From contig NW_027271471.1 of NCBI RefSeq assembly GCF_040938485.1, forward strand, positions 310,001 to 374,000: a DNA stretch of 64,000 bases, written 5' to 3'. The translations under genes were made by a program, and so were the position numbers. Below, piece by piece: positions 22,724 through 58,000 of the stretch (position 1 is its first letter; each line of letters starts with the position of its first letter). The notes beneath the pieces are model-generated. The model searched no databases, was not told where the DNA came from, and worked only from the letters and a program-made list of their open reading frames with translations. Source of the DNA: Diadema antillarum. Taxonomy: Eukaryota.

Positions 22724-24034
22724 TGTTGGAAGGTAGGCCTCGGGGCGTGTTAATGTGGCAAGATATTATTTTTGTTGTGTAACAAACTACACACCAAACA
22801 CACTCTCATCATACAGCCATATTCCAACGTCTTGAGTTGTGATTCGACTCGATTTACTAATTGTAATAACGGGCGTTGACAACAGAATATTTAAGTTTCA
22901 ATACTATACACGCTTTATTGTCGTGTACATCATTATATCACACGCAGGTGATAATTATAGGGTATTTCCCCCAGAATATGAATCAATCAGTGTATTGGTT
23001 ATTTACGACTCTCCATGAGCAATCACACCAAATTATATTTGGTCAAAACGTTTAAAAGGAGGTCTTAAAATTGAGGGGACATACATATGATTATAATTAT
23101 TAGGAGCGGTAATACAAATAAAAGGGTGCATAAGTTACGAACCACCGCGACAGTCCGAACAGAGTCCCAAGTCGCTTCCAGCGTAAAATAGCGGCCACGT
23201 CACTCTCCAAAGGGGACCTCAATCGCGATCGCGAACTGCAGTGCGCACTGCCACGATGAACTCCGGGTCGAGATGCTGACGTGTACACGTACTGTCTGGA
23301 ACGGGACCGGTGTTCGCCGCCTCGTCGTCGCCCGGCACTCACATCAATAGCGTTGACATCGATTGTTAAGGATGCGATCCCACTTGGAGATTCACAATAA
23401 ATTTACGCTAATTCGTGGTGAGCTGGACATACAGTAGATGAAGTTCATCCTTAGTCATTGACGACGGGGTTGACGATGGGAGGAGATGCGAGATGATGAG
23501 CTTTGATGCAAGCCTCATGCAGCGTCCGCAAATATGACAGGAATTCAACTCCTCTTCATAACAATTGTTCCACAACTATTTAGAATTAATGTTGCTTGAA
23601 AAATGCACCTCACCGATGTGGTGTATTGTATGAACTCCAAGAATTATAGTACAATGTAAAACTGACTCAATACGGGATGGACTTGACTCTGGAAAGTATA
23701 ATATTACATCTCCCCTTTGTATCGGACGCAGGAGATCGATGGTCTATGTCCATCTCCTTTGGAGGTTGAGGAGCCAGAGTGAGAGAAAAAGCTATGTCCA
23801 CGGTTAATGTTAGGGAAAGGGGGCTACGTGGCAGGTATTATGGGATAAGCCTACGTGTACCTTTTTACAGAACCGTGGTCAAAGGACTGGTCAGCAAAAA
23901 TTAGCTCTTTTGATTCTTCTTTTGCCATCGGGGAGCGTCCGGAGAGAGTAACATGATTATATAATACCGATTGAAATAGCTCCCTCTCTCGGCCGGTGAC
24001 TTATAGTCAGACTAACGGGGTACGTGCTGCTACA
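22724..24034 (-). repeat. 3' LTR (1311 bp)
   Basis: Matches 29277-30582 apart from the differences I could see (2 substitutions and a 5-bp indel). AATAAA at 22914-22919 on the minus strand. Confidence 0.95.
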
Positions 24035-24056
24035 AGGAATCCTCCCCCCCCCCCCT
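24035..24056 (-). promoter_or_regulatory. Polypurine tract (plus-strand primer)
   Basis: The minus strand reads a poly-G run then AGGATTCCT immediately before the 3' LTR start TGTAG. Confidence 0.8.
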
Positions 24057-24781
24057 AGTACGTAAGTCCTGACCAGCACTGACGTACGACAAAAGGAAAA
24101 ATAACTGTATGTACACCGTTTTACTACCTGCCAATAACACAATATCAATACGATGGTCATGTAAACCATTGAGGACGGTATGCAGGTTGTTATAAAGCTA
24201 ACAAAACTTATTGTAAAATACTGTACATAATATGCTATGAGGTCGATCTAACTGAACCGTGTGTTGGTTCAACGTCCTCAAGCGCTGTCCATGCATTATA
24301 GCACGGGCTCGATAATAATACAAACAGATGCACATTTGTAACGGAAAGTACAAACAAAGCATATTGTCAAGTATGACACAAAAAAGTGTATGTCATGTTG
24401 CTCGTGTCGTTCTGCGATGGCAGCCCCTAAGCGTTATACAATGTACTACATTTAGAGTATCGCAGAAAGCACACAAAGTAATATACATGTACGATAAAAA
24501 TACGGAAACTTAAATGTATCTGGTTGCAGTGAATCTGCCCGTGGTAAGTTTTCCTTCTACGGGGGCAACTCTGAGATCACGCAAAAGAAACTATTAGATG
24601 ATAACAAATTATCACAAAAAAAATCCTGTACAAACTGTATACGGCCAAGGCGTACACATATAACATACATACTAATTACCTAAGACGGTCGCATAATATC
24701 CACATTAATCAATTAAATCCGCCTTAAAACTTGACATGATTAAGAGTGATGGCAGACGCCTCGTAACTAAATGAAATAACG

Positions 24782-27169
24782 TTATCCTAACGATACCACA
24801 TAACGCGCCGGCCATCTGACGTGGCGCCCCGATCTCGTTTGTCGGACCGGTGGATCCGACTTCGCAGCGGGCGTATCCGACGCCGTCGACATCGCTGGGG
24901 GAGACTCGAGTGAGGAACGCGTTGTGTCGCGAGGTACTACTACATCGTCCGGCGCGCTGCTGCTCTCGACATGCGCGACTTTTAAGCGATCGACGCTCAC
25001 CTGCTCTTTCTTGCCATTGATTTCGAGTGTGTAATGCCTAACGTTGCGTCGTAACACTTTGTAAGGCCCATCGTAGGGCTGTTGCAAGGGCTTACGAACT
25101 CGATCGACACGGACAAAAACATAAGAACAAGTGTGCAGGTCTGTCGGCACGTGAGTAGTCGTGTGTTGGGAGCGAGGCGGAGTAGGTGTGAATTGAGACA
25201 TGTGGTTACGTAATCGAGAAACATAGTCGCTCGGGTCGACAGTGGTCTGCTGAGGAGCAACAAACTGAGCGGGCAAACGCAGTGTCGTGCCGTAGACGAG
25301 TTCGGCTGGGGAGCACTTGAGGTCATCTTTTACAGTAGAGCGAATGCCCAATAAGATGATCGGGATATGCTCAGTCCAGTGGGAGGGGTCGTTCTTTGCT
25401 TTTAGTGCAGCTTTCATCTGGCGGTGAAATCTCTCTATCATCCCGTTTGCTACCGGATGATAGGCGGTAGTGCGAATCCTAGTCGTGCCTAACAACCGCG
25501 TTAATTGCTCAAATAGGCGTGATTCGAATTGAACTCCACGGTCTGTGGTGACCGTTTCCGGCGCGCCGTGCACTGCTACCCATCGTTCGACAAACACTTT
25601 AGCTACCGTCTCGGCTGTTATGTCGGGTATGGGAACTGCCTCGGGCCACCTCGTATATCGATCTATACAAGTGAAAACGTATGAATTGCCCTGTGAAGTA
25701 GGCAGTGGTCCTACTAAATCGATATGAACATGCGCAAATCGTGCGTCAGGTGTACTGAATGTGCCGAGAGGAGCTTTGACGTGTCTATGAACTTTAGACT
25801 TCTGGCAAGGAATGCACTCGCGTGCCCACTTTCGAACATCTTTGTTGATGTTTGGCCACACGAACCGAGAAGTGATAGCTAGTTGGCTGGCTTTAACACC
25901 AGGATGAGATAAGCCATGGACTGAGTCAAATATCGCGCGCCTGTGGGATTGAGGAACGTACGGACGTGGCTTTTGGGTTGACATATCACAAATAATCTCG
26001 CCACCAGTAGAAATGAGAGGCAAACGTTCGAGTTTAAGGCTAGTAAGTGGGTTTCGCAGCTCTGCTTGCAACTCGTCATCGCACTGCTGTGCTTGTGCCA
26101 TCGATGCGTAGTCTACTGTTTCAGTCGTGTGGAGCGCGTTTACCGCAGGGCGGGAGAGCATGTCGGCTACTACATTTTCTGCCCCTTTTACGTGCCGAAT
26201 GTCGGTAGTAAACTGGGATATGTAGTCAAGTTGCCGTACTTCGCGCGGGCTGTGACGGTCTGGCTTAGCATTGAACGCGTAAGTCAGGGGTTTGTGGTCT
26301 GTATATACACAGAAGTCACGGGCATCAAGCATGTAACGAAAATGCTTGATAGTCAAGTAGATAGCAAGTAACTCTCGTCCGAAAGTACTGTACCTCGTCT
26401 CCGCTGCGTTCAACTTGCGAGAGAAAAAGGCGATTGGCTGCCAGGCCCCGTCAGTCAGTTGCTGTACCACGCCCCCGACTGCTCTGTCGGACGCGTCGAC
26501 CATGATACTCAACGCTGATTGGGTAGAAGGGTAAGCCAATAGTGTGGCCTGTGCAACTTTCTCTGTGATTTCGGCAAATGCCACGTCGCATGCTGGTGTC
26601 CAGTGCAGTGGTTTTCGTGAGCGTGTTGCACGATTCCGGAGGAGGTCCGTGAGCGGTGTCAATGTTTCTGCGCAGTTTGGGATAAACCTACGGTAGAAAT
26701 TGACCAGGCCTAAGAATGCACGCAGCTGCTTGACCGAAGTGGGCGTGGCGCATTGACGTATAGCTTCAACCTTTTCGGGCAGTGGGCTCACACCTTCGCT
26801 ATTGATGCGGTGGCCCAAGAAATCGAGCGAATCTCTCCCGAATTCACATTTGCTTGGGTTTACTACTACGCCGTACTCTTGCAGTCTTGCGAAAAGCAAA
26901 CGCAGATGGCGCTCGTGTTCTTCGTGATTCGCGCTTGCCACGAGGAGGTCGTCTATATATGCATAAACGAATGTGAGGCCACGAAGAACTTGGTCAATAA
27001 ACCGCTGAAATGTCTGAGCTGCGTTGCGTAACCCAAATGGCATACGCAAAAACTCGAATAGGCCAAATGGTGTGCTAATCGCAGTTTTGCAAATGTCATC
27101 AGTCTCTACGGGAATCTGATGATACGCCCTTACCAAGTCTATTTTCGAGAAAACGCGCTTGCCGTGCAA
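24782..27169 (-). CDS. pol: Pol 3' part: reverse transcriptase, RNase H, integrase (true frame extends up to ~27222)
   Basis: RT YIDD; RNase H DASD...E...TDH; integrase HHCC (SHPG...CIPC), HIDLVGP, TTDRG, GMIERFH; GPY motif; C-terminal TRSGR. Confidence 0.93.
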
Positions 27170-28038
27170 ATTCGAGGCAAAGTCCTGAATGTGAGGGACG
27201 GGGTAACGGTCGGGGATAGTTGCTTATTCAAGGCGCGATAGTCTCCGCACGGCCGCCAATCCCCTTCAGTGCGTTTGGGCACCATGTGTAAAGGTGATGA
27301 CCACGGGCTGTTGGACGGTCGCACAATGCCGAGCTCGAGCATGTGTTCGAACTCGCGTTTGGCTACGGCTAGTCTGTCAGCTGTCAGTCGTCGTGGTTGT
27401 GCACTAACGGGTGGTCCCTTTGTCTCGATATGGTGTGTGATGTTATGTCGAACGTCGCTCTCTTTGTATACCGGTTTGGTTATGTCACTGAAGTCGGTCG
27501 TAAGCATGCATCGGTATGGGTCGTTGTCATCGTCGGCTGTCTTATGTAAGCCGACGGGGTTGAGTCCGACGTTAACCGCAGTCTGTCCTGTGACATGCAA
27601 GTTTGTTACTGTGTCTATCAGTCGTCGTTGTTGGACATCGACCAAAAAGTGGAAGTGATGCAAAAAATCGGCACCGAGTATCGGTGTAGCCACATCGGCA
27701 ATTATGAAAACCCATCTAAAATTACGGCGCAAACCCAAATCTAATGTTAATGAACGTTGGCCATATGTGGCTATTTGGGAGCTGTTTGCGGCTCGCAAGT
27801 GATAAGAGGATGGATACTTTCGCTCATGTTTGCCGGGTGGGAACACCGACACTGCGGCACCAGTGTCAATCAAAAATTGTTGTTGCGTATTGTTGTCAGT
27901 GACGTAGAAGAGGCGACTGTTGCTAAGGGAACCAGTCGGGGTCGTCGCGCCTACCCGCTGGTCGCGTCGTTTCCCTTGTACGAACAAGGTTGAGTGCATC
28001 GATGTGCGTTTGCACCAAATCGGTAGTGGTAAAAGCAT
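27139..28038 (-). CDS. pol: Pol 5' part: aspartic protease and RT N-terminus (entered by -1 frameshift near 27972; leaves the RT frame near 27223)
   Basis: [10 protein letters not shown] protease motif, [30 protein letters not shown]. Confidence 0.9.
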
Positions 28039-28916
28039 AGCTGCTGTGTATTAGCTCCGGGCTGATCACTTGACGCTGCCGCCGCAGCGTTCGCTCCTTG
28101 GCTTTGCTGGCCGTGCTGGCCGTTGTGTTGCGAGGGGGTCTTAGCGCCCCTGCCTGCCGTGCTACGGCTGCGACTACGTCCTCGCTGCTGCATCTTTTTG
28201 ACGCTAAACGTCAGATCAATCAACGCACGCTTTACTTCGGCAAGCTCGCTCGTTAGCTGTGCCAACGTCGCTGGAGGCGTAACCCCTCTCGAATTTCCCC
28301 CACTACTGCTAACTGGTGCTATTATCGGAGGGCTAGCTGTCATTGTATTGACACCCGGTACGTGGGCATCAACGATCCGATCCGCGAGCTCGGCCAACTC
28401 CTGCAAAGTTAGGGCGTCAGAGGTTGATGCTAAAATTAGCCTGACGTTTTGGGGGAGTCTTTGCAGAAACAGCTGCTTCAGAATACCCTTTTCTAGCGTT
28501 TGATCGCCTACCAGCTGCTCCATTCTCCGCAGAAGCTGAGAAGGTTTACGATCGCCGAGTTCCTCCTCAGTTAGGAGTCGCTTAACGCGGCGCTGTTCAG
28601 ATTCGGACATTCGTGCTATGAGAGTTTGTTTCAGTTTGGTATATTGGTTGGCAGAAGGTGGGTTAACAATCAAGTCACGCACATCCTGCGCCACTTCGGG
28701 TGACAATGCGGCGATAACATAGGCGTATTTTGTCTCCTCTTTAGAAATGCCGCGCGTGCTAAACTGTGCCTCCGCTTGTGCGAACCAAATTTGGGGGTCG
28801 TTTGCCCAAAATGGGGGCAATTTGATAGAAACTGTGCCTATGAGTGAGCGTTCCTCGGGCTCTTTTGCAGGCAAGGCCGCTGGGGATAGAGTTTGCTCCG
28901 CACTTTCGGTAGCCAT
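27951..28916 (-). CDS. gag: Gag (321 aa from ATG 28916)
   Basis: KLPPFW motif, LGDRKPSQLLR, C-terminal [18 protein letters not shown] (C-x2-H-x9-C-x3-C); aaccATGG start context. Confidence 0.92.
   Translation of the reverse strand: MATESAEQTLSPAALPAKEPEERSLIGTVSIKLPPFWANDPQIWFAQAEAQFSTRGISKEETKYAYVIAALSPEVAQDVRDLIVNPPSANQYTKLKQTLIARMSESEQRRVKRLLTEEELGDRKPSQLLRRMEQLVGDQTLEKGILKQLFLQRLPQNVRLILASTSDALTLQELAELADRIVDAHVPGVNTMTASPPIIAPVSSSGGNSRGVTPPATLAQLTSELAEVKRALIDLTFSVKKMQQRGRSRSRSTAGRGAKTPSQHNGQHGQQSQGANAAAAASSDQPGANTQQLCFYHYRFGANAHRCTQPCSYKGNDATSG
27969..27975 (-). promoter_or_regulatory. -1 ribosomal frameshift heptamer G GGA AAC
   Basis: In gag frame TAC AAG GGA AAC; the -1 frame is the protease frame; a stem-loop starts 6 nt downstream (27962-27931). 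Confidence 0.8.
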
Positions 28917-29255
28917 GGTTACAATCTCTTCACGCAAGAATAAAATCGCCTAACGAGGGCGCAAGGTCCTGACCGGAGTGTTATGTGGTATCGGTCACTG
29001 CCGCAGCAATTTGCTACTGAATACGAACTATTAGGCCCACAAACAATGGAGAATAATTTGCAAACTTAACAGACAGCAACATACATATTACGTAAGCATA
29101 ACACAAAAATGCCAACCTATGTGGTATGAACCTATATAGTAGCAAGAATATGCTCAGATAGTATGGTTCACACTAAGTGCGTGTGTGGTTGTCAACTACT
29201 ACATGGGTATTATAAAGTCATATTATCAAATGGAGTGGAATCACACCTCTTTTAG

Positions 29256-29273
29256 ATCACGTCGGGGTCACCA
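29256..29273 (-). promoter_or_regulatory. Primer-binding site complementary to the tRNA-Trp 3' end
   Basis: The + strand ATCACGTCGGGGTCACCA equals the recalled 3' 18 nt of metazoan tRNA-Trp(CCA) including CCA; it lies 3 nt from the 5' LTR. Confidence 0.9.
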
Positions 29274-29276
29274 CTT

Positions 29277-30582
29277 TGTTGGAAGGTAGGCCTCGGGGCG
29301 TGTTAATGTGGCAAGATATTATTTTTGTTGTGTAACAAACTACACACCAAACACACTCTCATCATACAGCCATATTCCAACGTCTTGAGTTGTGATTCGA
29401 CTCGATTTACTAATTGTAATAACTGGCGTTGACAACAGAATATTTAAGTTTCAATACTATACACGCTTGATTGTCGTGTACATCATTATATCACACGCAG
29501 GTGATAATTATAGGGTATTTCCCCCAGAATATGAATCAATCAGTGTATTGGTTATTTACGACTCTCCATGAGCAATCACACCAAATTATATTTGGTCAAA
29601 ACGTTTAAAAGGAGGTCTTAAAATTGAGGGGACATACATATGATTATAATTATTAGGAGCGGTAATACAAATAAAAGGGTGCATAAGTTACGAACCACCG
29701 CGACAGTCCGAACAGAGTCCCAAGTCGCTTCCAGCGTAAAATAGCGGCCACGTCACTCTCCAAAGGGGACCTCAATCGCGATCGCGAACTGCAGTGCGCA
29801 CTGCCACGATGAACTCCGGGTCGAGATGCTGACGTGTACACGTACTGTCTGGAACGGGACCGGTGTTCGCCGCCTCGTCGTCGCCCGGCACTCACATCAA
29901 TAGCGTTGACATCGATTGTTAAGGATGCGATCCCACTTGGAGATTCACAATAAATTTACGCTAATTCGTGGTGAGCTGGACATAGATGAAGTTCATCCTT
30001 AGTCATTGACGACGGGGTTGACGATGGGAGGAGATGCGAGATGATGAGCTTTGATGCAAGCCTCATGCAGCGTCCGCAAATATGACAGGAATTCAACTCC
30101 TCTTCATAACAATTGTTCCACAACTATTTAGAATTAATGTTGCTTGAAAAATGCACCTCACCGATGTGGTGTATTGTATGAACTCCAAGAATTATAGTAC
30201 AATGTAAAACTGACTCAATACGGGATGGACTTGACTCTGGAAAGTATAATATTACATCTCCCCTTTGTATCGGACGCAGGAGATCGATGGTCTATGTCCA
30301 TCTCCTTTGGAGGTTGAGGAGCCAGAGTGAGAGAAAAAGCTATGTCCACGGTTAATGTTAGGGAAAGGGGGCTACGTGGCAGGTATTATGGGATAAGCCT
30401 ACGTGTACCTTTTTACAGAACCGTGGTCAAAGGACTGGTCAGCAAAAATTAGCTCTTTTGATTCTTCTTTTGCCATCGGGGAGCGTCCGGAGAGAGTAAC
30501 ATGATTATATAATACCGATTGAAATAGCTCCCTCTCTCGGCCGGTGACTTATAGTCAGACTAACGGGGTACGTGCTGCTACA
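29277..30582 (-). repeat. 5' LTR (1306 bp)
   Basis: Near-identical to 22724-24034. Confidence 0.95.
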
Positions 30583-49000: not shown

Positions 49001-52000
49001 GAAACCCAGTGTGACTGATGGGACACAAAAACGTGACTTATGGGACGCTATCAACTACCACATTTTGAGATTGAGAGAATAATATTTACTGATGCCGGAA
49101 CAAGTTCTAGAACATCATAAAACCAATCTATGACCAAAGAACATTCAGAAAATAAGCCATCTGAGAATTACACAAGCTGTATTATGGTCATAATAGTGTA
49201 TTAGAAATGATACATAAATTCTGCAAAAATTGGCAATTTTCATGAAAAATGAAGGTTTTTTCGGACATAACTCCACTCCACGTTCACCGATGTTCACAAA
49301 TGAGGTATCAAAATATCTGTTGTGAAAGGCTGCTTTGAGTAAACAATACCAGATCATCTAATTAAGCTTCATTAATCATCTATACTCAATAGTTTGATTA
49401 TCATAAAATGCAACCTTTCCGTGGAATTGACCCATTGCATTGTTGATTTGCTACACTTGTACAGTCCCTGGCATAGAAGGGTTAATAAGTGGCATACTAT
49501 TTAACGTTTGCTTCTCTTCCAGCTTGGCGGTGCCGGCGTGCTTGGAGTGGGCATCTGGACGATGATTTCCAAGTTTGACTACGCCGAGGTGCTCTGCACC
49601 TACGGCTACACCATCGCCACCTACACCCTCATCGGCTCGGGGGCGGTGGTCATCATCATCGCGGCGACTGGTTGCTATGGAGCTGTGCAGGAGGTCAAGA
49701 ACTGCCTCCTGCTGGTAAGTGACATCATTCTTTAAACATCTCTCACCTCATCTTTGCAGGCCTCCAGTTCCATTTGATTTGGGTCATGGTTATTTGGCCT
49801 AGACCCTCAAATTTTTGAAAGAGGCGGTCATACTGTAGTCAGTTAGGAGGGCATCGAGGCCAAAGTCGAATTTTTCTTGGGGGGGGGGGGGAGTTGGAGG
49901 GAGTGTCAGAAAAAAAATCATCTTGATATTGAATGAATTAACAAACATCTATGAATTTCACCATTTTTACAAAGTGTATATATGATATTCAAGGGGGAGA
50001 AACTACAGCTGTACATGTAGTTCATATTTGATTTGTATTGGATGGAAGTTTGTTGAATCTGCACAAATCAGAAAAAAAAAATAGCCTTAAAAACTTTGCC
50101 AATTTGAGACGAAAACATTAATCAGTATAATGTTTGCCAATTCACTGAGCAGTTACAGTGTATGTTTAGTGATTAAGAGATTTTGATGATTTTTGCAACC
50201 CCAGAATGAACAATGGTACAAATATGGACCCTACCAGTAGGGTCCATGGTACAAAGGACCAGAACTGAGGCATTTTATCTCGTAATGTACGGTAGAGAAT
50301 TCAGCCATTGGCTGCGCATTAGCCATTGGCTGAATTTGCGTAATATGAGAGGCCGTTCCGCGCGCAATCGCCATCTTCGTTCCAGCGCAATGTTCGATCG
50401 CGAAGCGATTTTTATCTGACCGAAAAATCGGAAAATATCATCGAAATCTGCGGAAATACGGAACTGAATTCGTGCTCTCTTACAAGCGTGATTATCGTTC
50501 TCAGCATGGATGAACCAGCTGACAAATCGGAGAAGGCAAAAGCCAAAAAAGATACCGAGCTGTGTGAGCCTAAGGCCAGCCCAGCTCCGGCAGCAAAGAA
50601 GAAGGCTGCAGGCAAAACTCTGTCTAGCGGCGGGAGGCCTAAGGCATCCCGCCCCGCGGCTTCGGGGAAGGCACAGCCGAACCCGCCCGCACCAGCTGCT
50701 ACCGCTCCCAACCCGACTGTGACTACAGCGGAAAATAGCACGGAGGTTATGTCCCGCATTGGGAAACTCGAGTCAATGTTCGAAAAAATGATCGAGACTT
50801 TGAGTACTCCTCATCATGGAGAACAACATGCCAACACGCCGCGGGATTGTTTTAGTGAATATGGCGACTGCGACACACAAAGGGGAAGCAGCTCACCACC
50901 CGTCATAGAATTGGCGGATAATCGCAGCGTGGCTGATTTCCTATCGGCAAACCGCGATGACGCGGTCAGCTTGTTTTCGGACGTAGGCCTACAGGAGGCA
51001 GATAAAGACAAACGGCCAGAATTCAAGATACCACGAATGGCTCAGAAATTCGTGGCTCCGTCCGGGATAGGGGAACCACTAGATGAGGATGTCGCGGACA
51101 CCATTGTGTATATGATGGGACAAAAACTTGACCAGAAATCTCTCGACGAAGCAGCAACTCGCTACCCCTGCCCATCTAACTGCACATGTCTAGAAACCCC
51201 TAAAGTGAACAGCACTATCTGGGAGAACATCTCGACGGGGACGAGACACAGGGATCTGAAACTACAAATGATCCAATCATCCCTCTTGAAAGGGATAAAC
51301 GCGTTTGCTCGTACCCTTCCAGCAACTTTGTCTGAAGCTCAGCAGGATGCTATGGCTTTTCTCTGCGATGCAAACTTCTCCCTCAACTGCATGAGAAAGG
51401 ACAGCATAAAGCCTGACATGAACTCAAATTTCCACCACCTGTGCAAGCCCTCTCACAAAGTGACAAAGTACTTGTTTGGAGATGACCTGGGGCGCCAAGT
51501 GAAAGAGATCCAAGAACAAAGGAAAACAATGTCAGGCATGATGAAATCACGCTTCACACGAGAGCAATCACGGTTCCAGCCGTACAAGAAACCGGATGTG
51601 ACATCTCGCCGTCAATACACGTCGACTGGGTTCACCCGCCCGTTGGGGAGGGGTTATGACCGCCGAACATCACATTCCAACCCCATGGCCGGTTCATCTG
51701 CACAGCCTTTTTTAGGGAAGGCTTGGAGGGGGAGACCTCGAGATCCTCCTCACACTTACACACCGACAGCAGCAAGGGAGGGTGGCAACAAGCAGCCAAC
51801 CTACCACAGGCAGAGCCAAAGCCAGGGGAGGAAATAGAACAGGTAGGTGACTATGAACACAACATAGACAACGATCTAGTTACAACACCAGCTGTCGTCG
51901 GAGGTCGTCTGAAGCCATTTTTCCCTGCTTGGGAAAATATCACGAGAGACTCACACATTATTCAAGCAGTTCAAGGCTATACAATAGAATTTGACCCAGA

Positions 52001-55000
52001 AAAATTTCCCCCTTCTCGAGAAAAACCTCTGCGTTCTTACAAGCGGAATGCTGAAGAAACAGCCAAGATTGACCATGAGATTCTTGTTCTGGAAGAAAAA
52101 CAGGTCATTGAAAAATGTGCCCATGAAGAAGGGGAATTTATTTCAGAGGTTTTCACGAGACCAAAAAAGAACGGAGGAGTTCGATTAATTCTTGACCTGT
52201 CCGAACTCAACAAAAGTGTTCAGTACCAACACTTTAAAATGGATAATATTCAATCTGGTATTCTACTCCTCTCAAAAGGGTGTTATATGGCTTCAGTAGA
52301 CCTCCGTGATGCATACTACACAATTCCCATTCACTTAGACTCTCGTAAATATCTCCGCTTCGTATGGAGAAACCAATTGTGGCAGTTCAAAGCTTTGCCA
52401 AATGGCTTATCTTCCGCCCCAAGACTGTTCACCAAAATACTGAAACCAGTGCTTGCCTTACTAAGACAACAGGGGCACACAGTTTTGTCGTACTTGGACG
52501 ACACACTGATAATTGGGAACAATAAAGCAGACACTCGCTCAGCAGTGCAAGCCACCACTGACCTTTTGACTAGTCTAGGGTTCATTATTCACTCAGAGAA
52601 ATCGGTACTTGAACCATCCCGTGAGATTGAATTTCTGGGTTTCCATTTAAATACATCTGAAATGAGAATCACCCTCCCAGCCAGTAAAAGCAATGACATT
52701 CAAGATGCATGTCGATCCTTGCTTGCTAATAACAAACCTAGTATCCGGGAGGTAGCTAAAGTCATTGGGAAGATTGTGGCTGCCTTACCAGCATCTCAGT
52801 ACGGCCCCTTGCATTACAGGCAGCTGGAAAGGGAAAAAATCAGAGCCCTGAGAAAACAGAAAGGACATTTCGATAGACATATGAGCCTATCAAATAGAGC
52901 CAAGGCGGAACTAGTTTGGTGGTCATCCCATGCACATCTCGTGTCTAAACCCCTGTACCCAGGGAAAGTATCAAAAGAAATAAGAACAGATGCTAGTGGA
53001 CAAGGTTGGGGTGCCACAGACCTGCAATCCAAGACAGGGGGTAGATGGAATGCTCAAGAATTAGCAAGAGCAGCAGGTAATGAAATAAACTATCTGGAAA
53101 TGCTAGCAGCCGGTTTGGGACTCAAAAGCTTCTGTTCAAATGTCAGAGATGCACATATACTGTTGAGATTAGACAACACCACAGCGGTGACATACTTGAA
53201 TAACATGGGCGGCGTCAAGTCTGAAGCATGTAACGAAATGGCGTTGCAAATTTGGGATTGGTGCAGTAGACGACAAATTTGGATAACAGCATCTCACTTG
53301 GCAGGCTCTAAGAACACAGAAGCTGATACGATGTCAAGGAAATTCAATGACAATATAGAATGGATGCTAGACAAGACAATATTCAATGAGATAGTGCAGA
53401 GGTATGGGTTACCAAATGTAGACCTTTTTGCCACCAGACTGAATGCCCAGCTCCCAACATACGTCTCCTGGAGACCAGATCCAGAGGCATGGGCAGTAGA
53501 CGCATTCACTATTGACTGGGGACCCCTAGTATTTTATGCGTTTCCCCCATTTAGCTTGGTTGCAAAGTGTCTCCAAAAAATCAGACAAGATGGCGCTAGG
53601 GGAATTTTGATAGTGCCAAATTGGCCAACACAGCCCTGGTATACCGTACTACGTAACATGCTATTGGAGGAGCCCTGGGTATTGCGAAAACACCAGTTGT
53701 TAACCCAACCCATTACAGGTAGACCCCATCCACTTACACATCTCTCCCTCTTATGTTGCAGGGTTGGAGCAAACATTTCATAGCTCAAGGACTGACGGAG
53801 GAGACTGCTGATATAATGGCAGCGTCTTGGAGGAAATCCACCAAGGAGCAGTATATGGTGTATATTAGGAAGTGGCAAAGGTTTTGTCATGAGCGTCACT
53901 TATGTTGGACCCATACGAAGGTGGGAAATTTGTTTGCGTTTTTTAATTCTATGTACAAAAATGGAGCAAGCTACAGCACCTTGAATACATCAAGGAGCGC
54001 ACTAGCATCAGTTGTTCTTCTACGGGACGAGAAATACACCATTTCTACACATCCTTGGATTTGCCGGTACTTCAGGGGCATTTTTAATCTCCGACCACCC
54101 ACTCCGAGATACAGCTTCATATGGGATGTGGGCAAGGTGCTGAGCTACCTCAGACAAGTAACTCCAGCTCATAAGATTTCGCTGTGTCAACTGACACACA
54201 AAGTATGTTTTTTACTAGCGTTGACTTCTGCCCAAAGAGTGCAAACACTTTCATACCTAACCCTTGACAATGTGAAGGCGTCCAAAGATTGTGTGGAAAT
54301 AGCAGTGGCTGATTTGATAAAGCAGAGTCAACCTGGGAATGTGGGAGTGAAAGTAACACTAAAAGCCTTTCCCGAGGATAAGAAACTCTGTGTTGTACAC
54401 TATGTTAAAGAATACATTAACAGAACAAGCACATTGAGGAAGGAGGTGAATGCACTATTTGTCACCTACAAGCAACCCCATGGGAAGGCATCAAAGCAAA
54501 CCATCGCTCGATGGATAAAAACTGTGTTGAGAGCATCAGGTATCGACACCGATCTCTTCAAAGCACATTCAACGAGATCGGCGGCAACCTCATCTGCCAA
54601 GAGGAATCATTTTCCAATAGCAGACATTCTCAAGCATGCTGGGTGGAAAAATGAATCCACGTTCAGGAATTTTTACCTGAAACCGGCATCCCAGGCAACA
54701 TCTTTTGGACAAGCAGTTCTGGGACAACAGACCTCTAGGAAGGGACAAGATTCAGTCCTGTAAACATAGGTAAAGTTGCCCAAAAACTTTCTCTGACAAT
54801 ATATTCTGTGAAAAATGACTACTGTGAAAATCTTTGAAGTCTCATATTACGCAAATTCAGCCAATGGCTAATGCGCAGCCAATGGCTGAATTCTCTACCG
54901 TACATTACGAGATAAAATAGAAAATTAAATGAAAAACATTGAAATTTAATTTGTATTTTATGAGTAATGGGAGGATAGAGAATTCAGCACCCTCCGCTCC

Positions 55001-58000
55001 CTCCCTTACTCTGAACAGCCTTAAATGTGGCTTATACAAGATCTATTTTATCTCGAAATATTTTTTCACAGTAGTCATCAGCTTTTAAAGATGGCGATTG
55101 CGCGCGGAACGGCCTCTCATATTACGCAAATTCAGCCAATGGCTAATGCGCAGCCAATGGCTAATGCGCAGCCAATGGCTGAATTCTCTATCCTCCCATT
55201 ACTCATAAAATACAAATTAAATTTCAATGTTTTTCATTTAATTTTCTATTATATTCATCTACAGTTGTAGCCATTCCTGTGTCCAAGGGTTTGATCTATA
55301 CATCATGGCCTCTAGTATCAGGACACTGGTTCTGAAACTGAAATTACATTTGTAGCAAATTTTGTCTTTTTATCAAATAACAGAATAATCTTTAATATGA
55401 TATGGTTTTAAAAGTATACATGCCACGTATATTTTTTTTTTTCCAGACAATCATTTTAACTCCACCTCATCCCTGAAATTATTTCATAGTGATGTACAGT
55501 ATGCTCCCTTTTAATAATAGAATGCTCGAATATTAACACGTTGAGGACGAGTCCCAAGTATACTCGGGCAGGTGTCTATAATGGGAAATATGTGTTGTAG
55601 CAAAATCAGTCCATCCGCATTGGGTTATAGTACAATAAAACAATCCCTCCTGTCTGTCTGTGTATTGAACTAGAAATGTATCTTACACCATGAAATTGTG
55701 ACTATGTGTTCCTGTAACACGCACGTGGCCACCATGATATCATTGTCGTACAGAAAGATACAGCATTATTTTTTTTTTCCACAGTGAAGTTCATTTTGTG
55801 GAGAGACCAATGTGGCCAACCTGTGGCAAGCTAAACTGAAAAATTAGAGCTGTTCGGTGTGAAATGGAGTTCTTGATTCCTCATACAGTGTGTGATGTTC
55901 AGACTGTGACACAACATTTGCTCCTGTAACAATTGCTCTGATCTTTTTCTCTCAAAGAACTTTAGGGTTAGGGTTAGGGTTGTGATAGGGTTACAGGTTT
56001 AGTAATAGACATGAGGATAAGGATTGGGTCAGGGTTATGCTCGTGGATATGTTTTATGTTTGGCTAATAGCGTGCAGATTTTCATACGAGCAATTGTCGC
56101 AGGATCAAATGTCATGAGACTGTTTAACACTTTAAGTACCTTTTTCTCCTCTCACACCCCAACAGTATTTTTTCCTGCTTCTCTTCCTCTTCCTGGTCGA
56201 GCTCGGACTTGGAGTCTTTGTCTACTACTACAGAGGGATGGTAGGTTCCATTCATGTGTAGCACTTGCTGCTCCGATAGCTACGTTCACGTGCAGGATTA
56301 ATATAGTTTTTAACATCGTGATGCAAAAATTGAATTTATTTCCCTTTGTTCACACATGGTTAAAAAAAAAAAATTAAAAATCACTTTCTGGCAAATGAAG
56401 CACATTGAATCCAGAATGTGCGTGCCAATTGCAAATGGCCAGAGTGTGACGTGGGACACCTGATTATGCAAACCTAGTGTGAAAAGTTGAAGTTTGGGGT
56501 TTGAAAAATTAATGATTTCTTCATGTGCCTTCATACACTCTGCACAGGACAAATTATCGTGAAAATTGTGACAAAAAAATCAAGCTGGACTGACTTTTGC
56601 AAGGTATTGCATAACACGAGTGTTGGAGTATGCAGAACTTTTGTTGAAAGGGAGGAATATCCTATACCATAATCCATAAAGGGATTGTTAGGTGAAAGGT
56701 GAAAGGTCATGACCAAAGTTCATTGGATTGAAATTGGTTTATGTCATTTTCAATCTCCAAGATATTAAACTAGGCAGCAAGAAATGCAGGTGAGTGTGCG
56801 AAGCAATTATTAGATTCAGCCAGAAATTCACTGGTTAGGGAAGAAGTTGAATCAGTAAGTGAAATGGTGTTCAGGATAGAAATGAATTAGAGATTGTATC
56901 ATGAAAGAAGGAAAGACATTATTCAGATTGTATCATGTATGAGAAGTGTTTTCTTCCTAAAATAGGGACTGAAAGTCAAATGAATGTACCTGATCTTTAA
57001 CCCATGGCAACCATTGTGTCGTCCAGATTGAAACTGAGCTGGAGAACTGTATGACCACCACCCTCGTCGAGGATTACGGTATGGATGGGAAGGAGGCCTA
57101 CAGTGAGACGGTCGACAAGGTCCATGCCACTGTGAGTTCTCTGACCTCTGTCTGCGCTTTATTTTCCAATGACAAAATTCTATCAGGTCTCTGTCAGTCA
57201 ATTCAATTCAAATCAATTCAATGTAATTTTATTTAATTTAATTTGATTCAATCTAATCTAATTCAATTCAATTTAATCTAATTTAATTCAATTCAATTCA
57301 ATTCAGTTAAATTTTAATTGTGCAATAAAAAAGAAAATTACAGAGAATTCTATGCGGGAATTCTACATATGTATTAAAATGGTGGTGCTTGAAAAGTCGA
57401 AAACATGAAAAGCACATGATAAATAAATAAATGGACTTTAAATACAAAGTCAAACTGGAAGAATCAATCATGTAGAATATAGAACTCAATGGACATTATG
57501 TGAAACTCCAGAAATCTGTACCTGTTGCCTACGTAACCGATGCGAATCCCAGTCCCCCCCCCCCCCCCCCCCCCCATGCATATACTGTAGACAAGAACTT
57601 TAATATGCGTGCACTGAAATTTCATGAATCTTGGCTCTCGCAAAATTCGCAAAGTGAAATGCACACAAACATTTCTAGTTTTGTAGGAGTCCCCAAATCC
57701 CTATAATGGGTGTACCCATGGGACTATAAAGGCACATTGCTATTCTTGATTGGACTGACGTGTCTGCAGCTAGTACACATATGTAGGTCCAGGTCAGATG
57801 GATGACTGAACGCCAATAAAAAAAAAAGCTTGGCGAGTTCGGCTGAGTGTGTAGGGACAAAAAGAGTTAAATGAGTATCCCAAACAATTATTGAACATTA
57901 ATTTTGACAAATCTTGTCAGCATTCAAAATTAATTGTAATGCACAACCACATTGACAGAATGAGAAGCAAGTGTTATTCCTTAAAAAAAAAGAAAAGCAA

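Follow-up and report, generated by a model that had tools for sequence, protein, structure and literature searches.

Located within a 64,000-nucleotide stretch of Diadema antillarum DNA, referred to here as the window, is an intact DIRS1-like element of 4,979 bp (50272 to 55250) with ATT at both ends. The positions of its features are provided in Table 1. Both 29-nt termini are exactly complementary to the two halves of the internal complementary region (ICR), with a 3-bp overlap, AAT. In those sections of PMC3266345 drawn upon here, inverted terminal repeats and an ICR with an AAT circular junction define the DIRS1-like elements, and the Dictyostelium DIRS-1 group is described as having gag, RT/RH/MT, and tyrosine recombinase open reading frames. 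The window element resembles that group, as described there, in its three reading frames, inverted terminal repeats, ICR, ATT termini, and AAT circular junction. On the basis of its RT/RNase H/methyltransferase frame, tyrosine recombinase, terminal repeats, and ICR, it is a DIRS1-like retrotransposon.

Table 1. Features of the DIRS1-like element, in window coordinates.
Feature	Position	Strand	Remarks
Left inverted terminal repeat	50272..50377	+	element begins ATT
gag ORF	50506..51837	+	443 aa, ATG to TAG; FLG island near C-terminus
ORF2 (pol)	51660..53783	+	-1 relative to gag; first ATG 52239
Slippery heptamer U_UUU_UUA (predicted frameshift site)	51708..51714	+	-1 phase
Linker, 43 codons, -1 frame	51714..51842	+	predicted common to Gag-Pol and Gag-recombinase
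Weak stem-loop, possible stimulator	51726..51751	+	8 bp
Intron, GT-AG, 1,919 nt	51843..53761	+	4 reads, 3 starts, run X10
RT in ORF2	~52161-52649	+	RVT_1 6.5e-23 (Pfam)
RNase H-like in ORF2	~52977-53201	+	RT_RNaseH E 0.011, below Pfam cut-off
Dam-like methyltransferase in ORF2	~53361-53645	+	Dam E 0.04, below Pfam cut-off
Tyrosine recombinase exon	53762..54763	+	Phage_integrase 1.5e-11, Phage_int_SAM_1 3e-5
Internal complementary region	54840..54988	+	two halves overlap on AAT circular junction, 54916-54918
Right inverted terminal repeat with right extension	55088..55250	+	element ends ATT

The label gag is based on position and homologs. The frame has no match in Pfam, a protein search returned 19 database hits, and an NCBI protein of 443 aa labelled Diadema antillarum is identical over the searched part. 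The weak RNase H and Dam matches of ORF2 follow the order expected for a DIRS1-like element, and its homologs carry PF05869. The recombinase frame is open from 53723 and contains ATG codons at 53753, which falls within the intron, and at 53816.

Approximately 550 nt upstream of the element lies a host exon (49540-49715) with hydrophobic coding, a GT donor, and coverage by poly(A) reads. This exon looks tetraspanin-like. The element may lie inside a host intron. Elsewhere in the window, near-identical direct repeats at 22724-23734 and 29277-30282, about 6.5 kb apart, flank a GC-richer block (24001-30000) and are possibly those of an LTR element.

The first-pass annotation proposed that the RT-encoding frame is reached from gag by -1 frameshifting at a slippery heptamer. 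The underlying reading proved correct: gag runs CCT TTT TTA GGG AAG, with T TTT TTA in the phase required for -1 tandem slippage, and no other X_XXY_YYZ heptamer with Z other than G occurs in the 178 nt of overlap between 51660 and 51837. Likewise, ORF2 opens after a TGA and has no ATG ahead of the RT, its first being that of the FKMDN sequence within the domain. Near-cognate codons are present in ORF2. In the read data, which are of low depth here, no insertion or deletion is listed in the T run at 51708-51713.

The conservation of this signal was addressed with relatives collected by RT alignment. Ninety-six loci were fetched, the metagenome scan contributing the best 80 of 554. Together with the window these came to 97 loci, from which 18 without the RT N-terminus were dropped, and the remaining 79 fell into 59 clusters at 75% RT identity, hereafter called families. 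Forty-one of these display a -1 overlap (the window and 40 others), seven have gag and pol in one frame, and in 11 gag is broken or missing. An upstream ORF of at least 150 codons overlapping ORF2 by at least 15 nt was found in 54 sampled loci, with the overlap being -1 in 53, the window included, and +1 in one. Fifteen DIRS-like loci of the collection (L082-L096) lie in contigs of bacterial metagenome-assembled genomes and are most likely eukaryotic contamination.

An in-phase X_XXY_YYZ heptamer occurs in the overlap of 39 of the 40 non-window families, a sample that includes the best 80 of 554 metagenome relatives; it is absent only in L034. The other two phases contain one in 12 and three of the 40, respectively, and a gag control window of the same length in five. 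Dinucleotide shuffles predict 11.1 of 40 (P = 1.8e-23 with kinship ignored, a value that is overstated because the families share ancestry). A narrower list of strong heptamers, picked post hoc with the data already in view, gives 39, 3, and 0 of 40 by phase. Even in the 11 clusters with a broken or missing gag, nine have the in-phase heptamer. In four of the 40 families the heptamer is the precise point at which the -1 frame opens, and in 25 there is no ORF2 ATG before the RT, whereas 15 have at least one.

The heptamers of the 39 families are of several types, namely UUUUUUA (12), AAAAAAC (12), UUUUUUG (8), GGGUUUU (4), and UUUUUUU, GGGAAAC, and UUUAAAC (one family each). On a quick RT tree, in which L092 and L081 are long branches, AAAAAAC and UUUUUUA each require seven changes, and well-supported branches force at least four and at least five, respectively. 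In the part of PMC5009743 that deals with heptamers, four are among the most shift-prone on mammalian ribosomes, and all four occur among the DIRS substitutes; the word DIRS is absent from the text of that paper. The Gag residues encoded at the site vary with the heptamer (FL, KN, GF, LN, GN), whereas the phase and the X_XXY_YYZ form are constant. Indeed, the letters and residues change while form and phase are kept, as expected for a frameshift site; polymerase slippage, a constraint on the protein, or use as a splice acceptor would not predict this. Since the heptamer is swapped among slippery types, -1 frameshifting at the gag/ORF2 overlap is very probably the route to Gag-Pol, and the Gag-RT-RH-MT polyprotein of the earlier proposal is supported by the survey across relatives that it had itself called for. 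The first-pass annotation regarded the signal as convergent, and the heptamer type does turn over repeatedly, but the frameshifting could itself descend from a gag-pol ancestor.

A 13-nt identity with the HIV-1 frameshift signal had also been claimed, the last three bases of which we take as presumed. The first ten nucleotides, U UUU UUA followed by GGG, do agree with the HIV-1 signal as given in the portion of PMC4373837 consulted. The special meaning attached to the identity did not survive: none of the other 39 heptamer-bearing families has the 13-mer, and the rates at which the 12 U_UUU_UUA families match at each position (11, 8, 3, 4, 9, and 4 of 12) multiply to about one such family in 80 matching all 13 nt. 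Accordingly, the identity was rejected as meaningful, and on these rates it appears to be a coincidence added to a genuinely shared heptamer. Like HIV-1 gag-pol, the retroviruses, and Ty3/Gypsy elements, the DIRS element has pol in the -1 frame without a start of its own, yet the heptamer varies by family and is not accompanied by a strong conserved stem. Neither the conserved GGG intercodon nor the extended stem-loop of the HIV-1-type element characterizes the group, GGG following the heptamer in three of the 12 U_UUU_UUA families and the window having no comparable stem. As judged from these comparisons, the DIRS signal would work like a retroviral gag-pol frameshift, yet is apparently not an HIV-type element.

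The stem reported to follow the heptamer in the window is present as GAGGGGGA/TCCTCCTC, in which 51726-51733 pairs with 51744-51751 through 8 bp including one G-U. It appears in the predicted fold of three of four downstream windows, with a spacer of 11 nt, or 9 nt with the predicted extension. As a strong stimulator it fared less well, being no more stable than shuffled sequences (z from -0.67 to -1.15). Across the relatives the mean fold z is -1.15 downstream of the heptamer versus -0.01 upstream, with values below -2 in nine of 39, and simple folds of the 39 families revealed no downstream fold common to them.

RNA data were taken from three poly(A) raw-read runs bearing the same species label, with 63, 122, and 419 reads on 49600-55700 when sampled at about 12% of each read, and from one set of 14 contigs. 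A single joint is listed across 49600-55700, namely 51842/53762, in four reads from three starts of run X10, and it removes the RT, RNase H, and methyltransferase regions; the remaining three sets (63 and 122 reads, 14 contigs) do not show it. Unspliced reads cover pol. The donor, CAG/GTAGGT, lies 5 nt past the gag stop and falls between codons of the -1 frame (phase 0 in ORF2); the acceptor, TTGCAG/GGT, falls between codons of the recombinase frame. By its GT-AG ends, pyrimidine tract, and junction in RNA, the removed segment conforms to a spliceosomal intron. CAGG is present on both sides of the junction, a 4-nt microhomology. The reads may stem from other copies because most of these are 95-99% alike. 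A second donor-like GT, in phase 1, is located 4 nt behind the main donor (51847-51852); its equivalent is strong in L002, L003, L004, L006, and L007, and it is weak in the window.

The donor is likewise conserved. A phase-0 donor lies between -6 and +60 of the gag stop in 37 of the 40 families (again a sample including the best 80 of 554) and is absent from that interval in three. Phase-1 donors were found in five families, always beside a phase-0 donor, phase-2 donors in none, and control windows yielded zero to one of 40. When the whole stretch from heptamer to RT is considered, 37 of 38 phase-0 donors fall at -4 to +44, where 12.3 are expected; for the segment between the gag stop and the RT alone, 71% would be expected within 50 nt. 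Ten of the 11 clusters with defective gag also have the phase-0 donor.

Acceptors were scored with a crude ad hoc matrix as the best AG in a 315-nt window. By this score, 42 of 49 families have their top AG in recombinase phase 0, and among the 29 intact families that AG falls within the open recombinase frame in 26. That frame is open for 21-330 nt upstream (median 216) versus 0-189 nt (median 18) for the third frame. In 12 of the 29 intact families the recombinase frame has no ATG as far as 10 codons beyond the anchor, and in the other 17 it has at least one. In 19 of the 29, the predicted acceptor is an AGY serine codon following the methyltransferase PPF motif, so that this commonest site coincides with a coding motif; all 19 have the recombinase frame open from the acceptor for at least 207 nt. 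In the other 10, which lack the PPF-S AG, the site is further down, and four share that of the window. The window itself possesses the upstream AG, but with the recombinase frame closed at that point, and the reads are joined at the lower site. The families with conserved donor and acceptor have RT identities to the window of about 40-57%. Given the reads and this conservation, the pol-skipping splice is real and functional with a likelihood that we regard as high.

From sites equivalent to 53555 of the window downwards, the predicted acceptor is shifted along the methyltransferase-coding region between lineages, with three main positions at about -210, -42 to -78, and 0, which alters the length of the N-terminal extension of the recombinase. 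A search for long recombinase proteins gave 26 hits. Three of these match Gag and eight RT, the remainder being for the most part long overlapping ORFs. There is no clean Gag-recombinase model among the 26, which are automatic models and were not used as evidence. In P0143 and similar proteins, the recombinase ORF is about 900 aa in length and begins with a long N-terminal extension that matches neither Gag nor RT. They fit the "long ORF overlap" class of DIRS elements, and their expression may differ.

The seven families with gag and pol in one frame (L019, L020, L029, L043, L044, L047, and L051) offer a natural control. No heptamer was found at the expected place in L019, L020, and L029, which instead have two donors in tandem, spaced by 5 nt and located some 60-140 nt upstream of the RT start. 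Use of the phase-1 donor would bring a stop one to two codons past the predicted junction, giving Gag alone, and the phase-0 donor would lead into the open recombinase frame. These predicted donors look like a Copia-like replacement of the frameshift. In L043, L047, and L051, T TTT TTA G is retained some 280-300 nt upstream of the RT start, with a donor-like GT right behind it; the -1 frame stops immediately after the heptamer, and there is also a donor pair near the RT. By sequence, Gag could arise in these three through frameshift-termination or through splicing.

In retroviruses the integrase resides within Pol and the major splice donor lies upstream of gag. In the DIRS element, by contrast, the donor is behind the gag stop, and Pfam detected neither a protease nor a DDE integrase in ORF2. 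With the donor in that position the spliced product still requires the frameshift. Ribosomes in the gag frame end before the junction, and thus, of the elongating ribosomes, only those that have shifted reach the recombinase. Since the donor is in the -1 phase and the acceptor in the recombinase phase, one frameshift would serve both enzymes, yielding Gag-RT-RH-MT from the unspliced RNA and Gag-recombinase from the spliced RNA. To this reading we assign a probability of roughly three in four, and the same holds for production of the recombinase as a frameshifted Gag fusion. The first-pass annotation had anticipated the Gag-Pol part of the frameshift route; it did not notice the splice, through which the recombinase, too, is likely reached by that frameshift.

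The scheme would operate as follows. On both RNAs most ribosomes would end at the gag stop and produce Gag (443 aa). A minority would slip by -1 at 51708-51714 and pass the gag stop through the 43-codon linker, thereafter entering pol on the unspliced RNA to give a protein of 1,092 aa, or the recombinase on the spliced RNA to give one of 779 aa. The Gag moiety would carry both enzymes into the particle. Transcripts are generally spared nonsense-mediated decay when the junction is less than 50-55 nt from the stop, and a donor so near the gag stop, under 50 nt away, may spare the spliced RNA in this way.

The main rival accepts both frameshift and splice but has ribosomes that end at the gag stop of the spliced RNA reinitiate at the ATG at 53816, so that the recombinase is produced separately. 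This in-frame codon lies 54 nt inside the exon, ahead of the region that Pfam matches as SAM-like, and a methionine at the equivalent place recurs in many relatives. Reinitiation after an ORF of 443 codons is usually poor. Such a route requires neither a phase-0 donor with respect to the -1 frame, which 37 of the 40 families have, nor the approximately 70 open codons between acceptor and recombinase core that most relatives nevertheless possess, and we consider it unlikely. That the junction is instead a cryptic or host-silencing splice, or a deleted DNA copy, having no role in protein production behind a real frameshift, would accord with its four reads from one of the four runs and with the microhomology at its ends; the conservation of donor and acceptor, in position and phase, across families with only about 40-57% RT identity to the window makes this very improbable.

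Two further proposals concern the heptamer itself. It might be kept for the sake of the FLG sequence in Gag, or for transcriptional slippage on U6 or A6, with translation of pol beginning at a near-cognate codon or at one further downstream. Close Gag homologs do keep FLG, which stands out from an otherwise unalignable gag tail in 15 of the 19 proteins aligned; the remaining four are database models with divergent tails. Moreover, 33 of the 39 heptamers include six identical bases in a row, ORF2 does have near-cognate codons, and 15 of 40 families have an upstream ATG. A constraint on the protein alone was rejected, however, as the encoded residues switch with the heptamer while its phase and form stay, and the base preceding the first codon is likewise constrained. 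Transcriptional slippage needs no particular phase, and the T run shows no listed indel at its low depth; the ORF2 ATGs are scattered and are lacking altogether in 25 of the 40 families. Taken as a whole this proposal seems quite improbable. Alternatively, TTTTTTAG/G could be a 3' splice acceptor, with pol reached from an upstream exon without frameshifting. The window sequence does fit a pyrimidine tract plus AG, but 27 of the 39 heptamer families have something other than UUUUUUA, 12 of these have AAAAAAC, which is not an acceptor, and the UUUUUUA family L028 is without the G. A joint into 51716 is not listed in X10 at a depth of about 16, a weak negative. The non-acceptor heptamers of the relatives largely refute this explanation, and it is scarcely credible.

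Frameshifting in DIRS elements, or splicing that skips pol, does not seem to have been described in the literature searched. The searched text and supplements of PMC3266345 describe the overlaps of the DIRS ORFs without addressing the translation of ORFs 2 and 3, and mention neither a frameshift signal nor a pol-skipping splice; neither do the searched portions of PMC3783388, PMC6681497, PMC7192593, bioRxiv 10.1101/2021.08.05.455354, and PMC8547959 report them. Within the literature searched, the conserved heptamer and its coupling to a splice are provisionally regarded as new. The nearest parallel is provided by short-Gag splicing in Ty1/Copia elements, where, according to the part of PMC5580714 consulted, alternative splicing sets protein stoichiometry. 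Copia splicing releases Gag alone from a fused gag-pol, whereas DIRS splicing would swap the enzyme placed behind the frameshift. To the extent that this source allows, the in-frame relatives L019, L020, L029, L043, L047, and L051 look nearer to the Copia plan.

On balance it is probable, if less so than the individual steps, that this DIRS1-like group has an expression plan of its own, in which a conserved -1 frameshift lies upstream of an alternative splice with the donor pinned behind the gag stop, and in which the in-frame lineages have replaced the frameshift with a second, out-of-phase donor giving Gag alone. The frameshift site, donor, and acceptor are defined to the base, and each is conserved across dozens of divergent families. 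Slippery sites swapped in nature, their downstream structure weak or missing, form a series that provides material for studies of frameshifting in invertebrates. If the scheme is true, annotations that start ORF2 and ORF3 at internal methionine codons need correction, and Gag-Pol and Gag-recombinase would be the real protein forms with which to reconstitute DIRS particles and integration.
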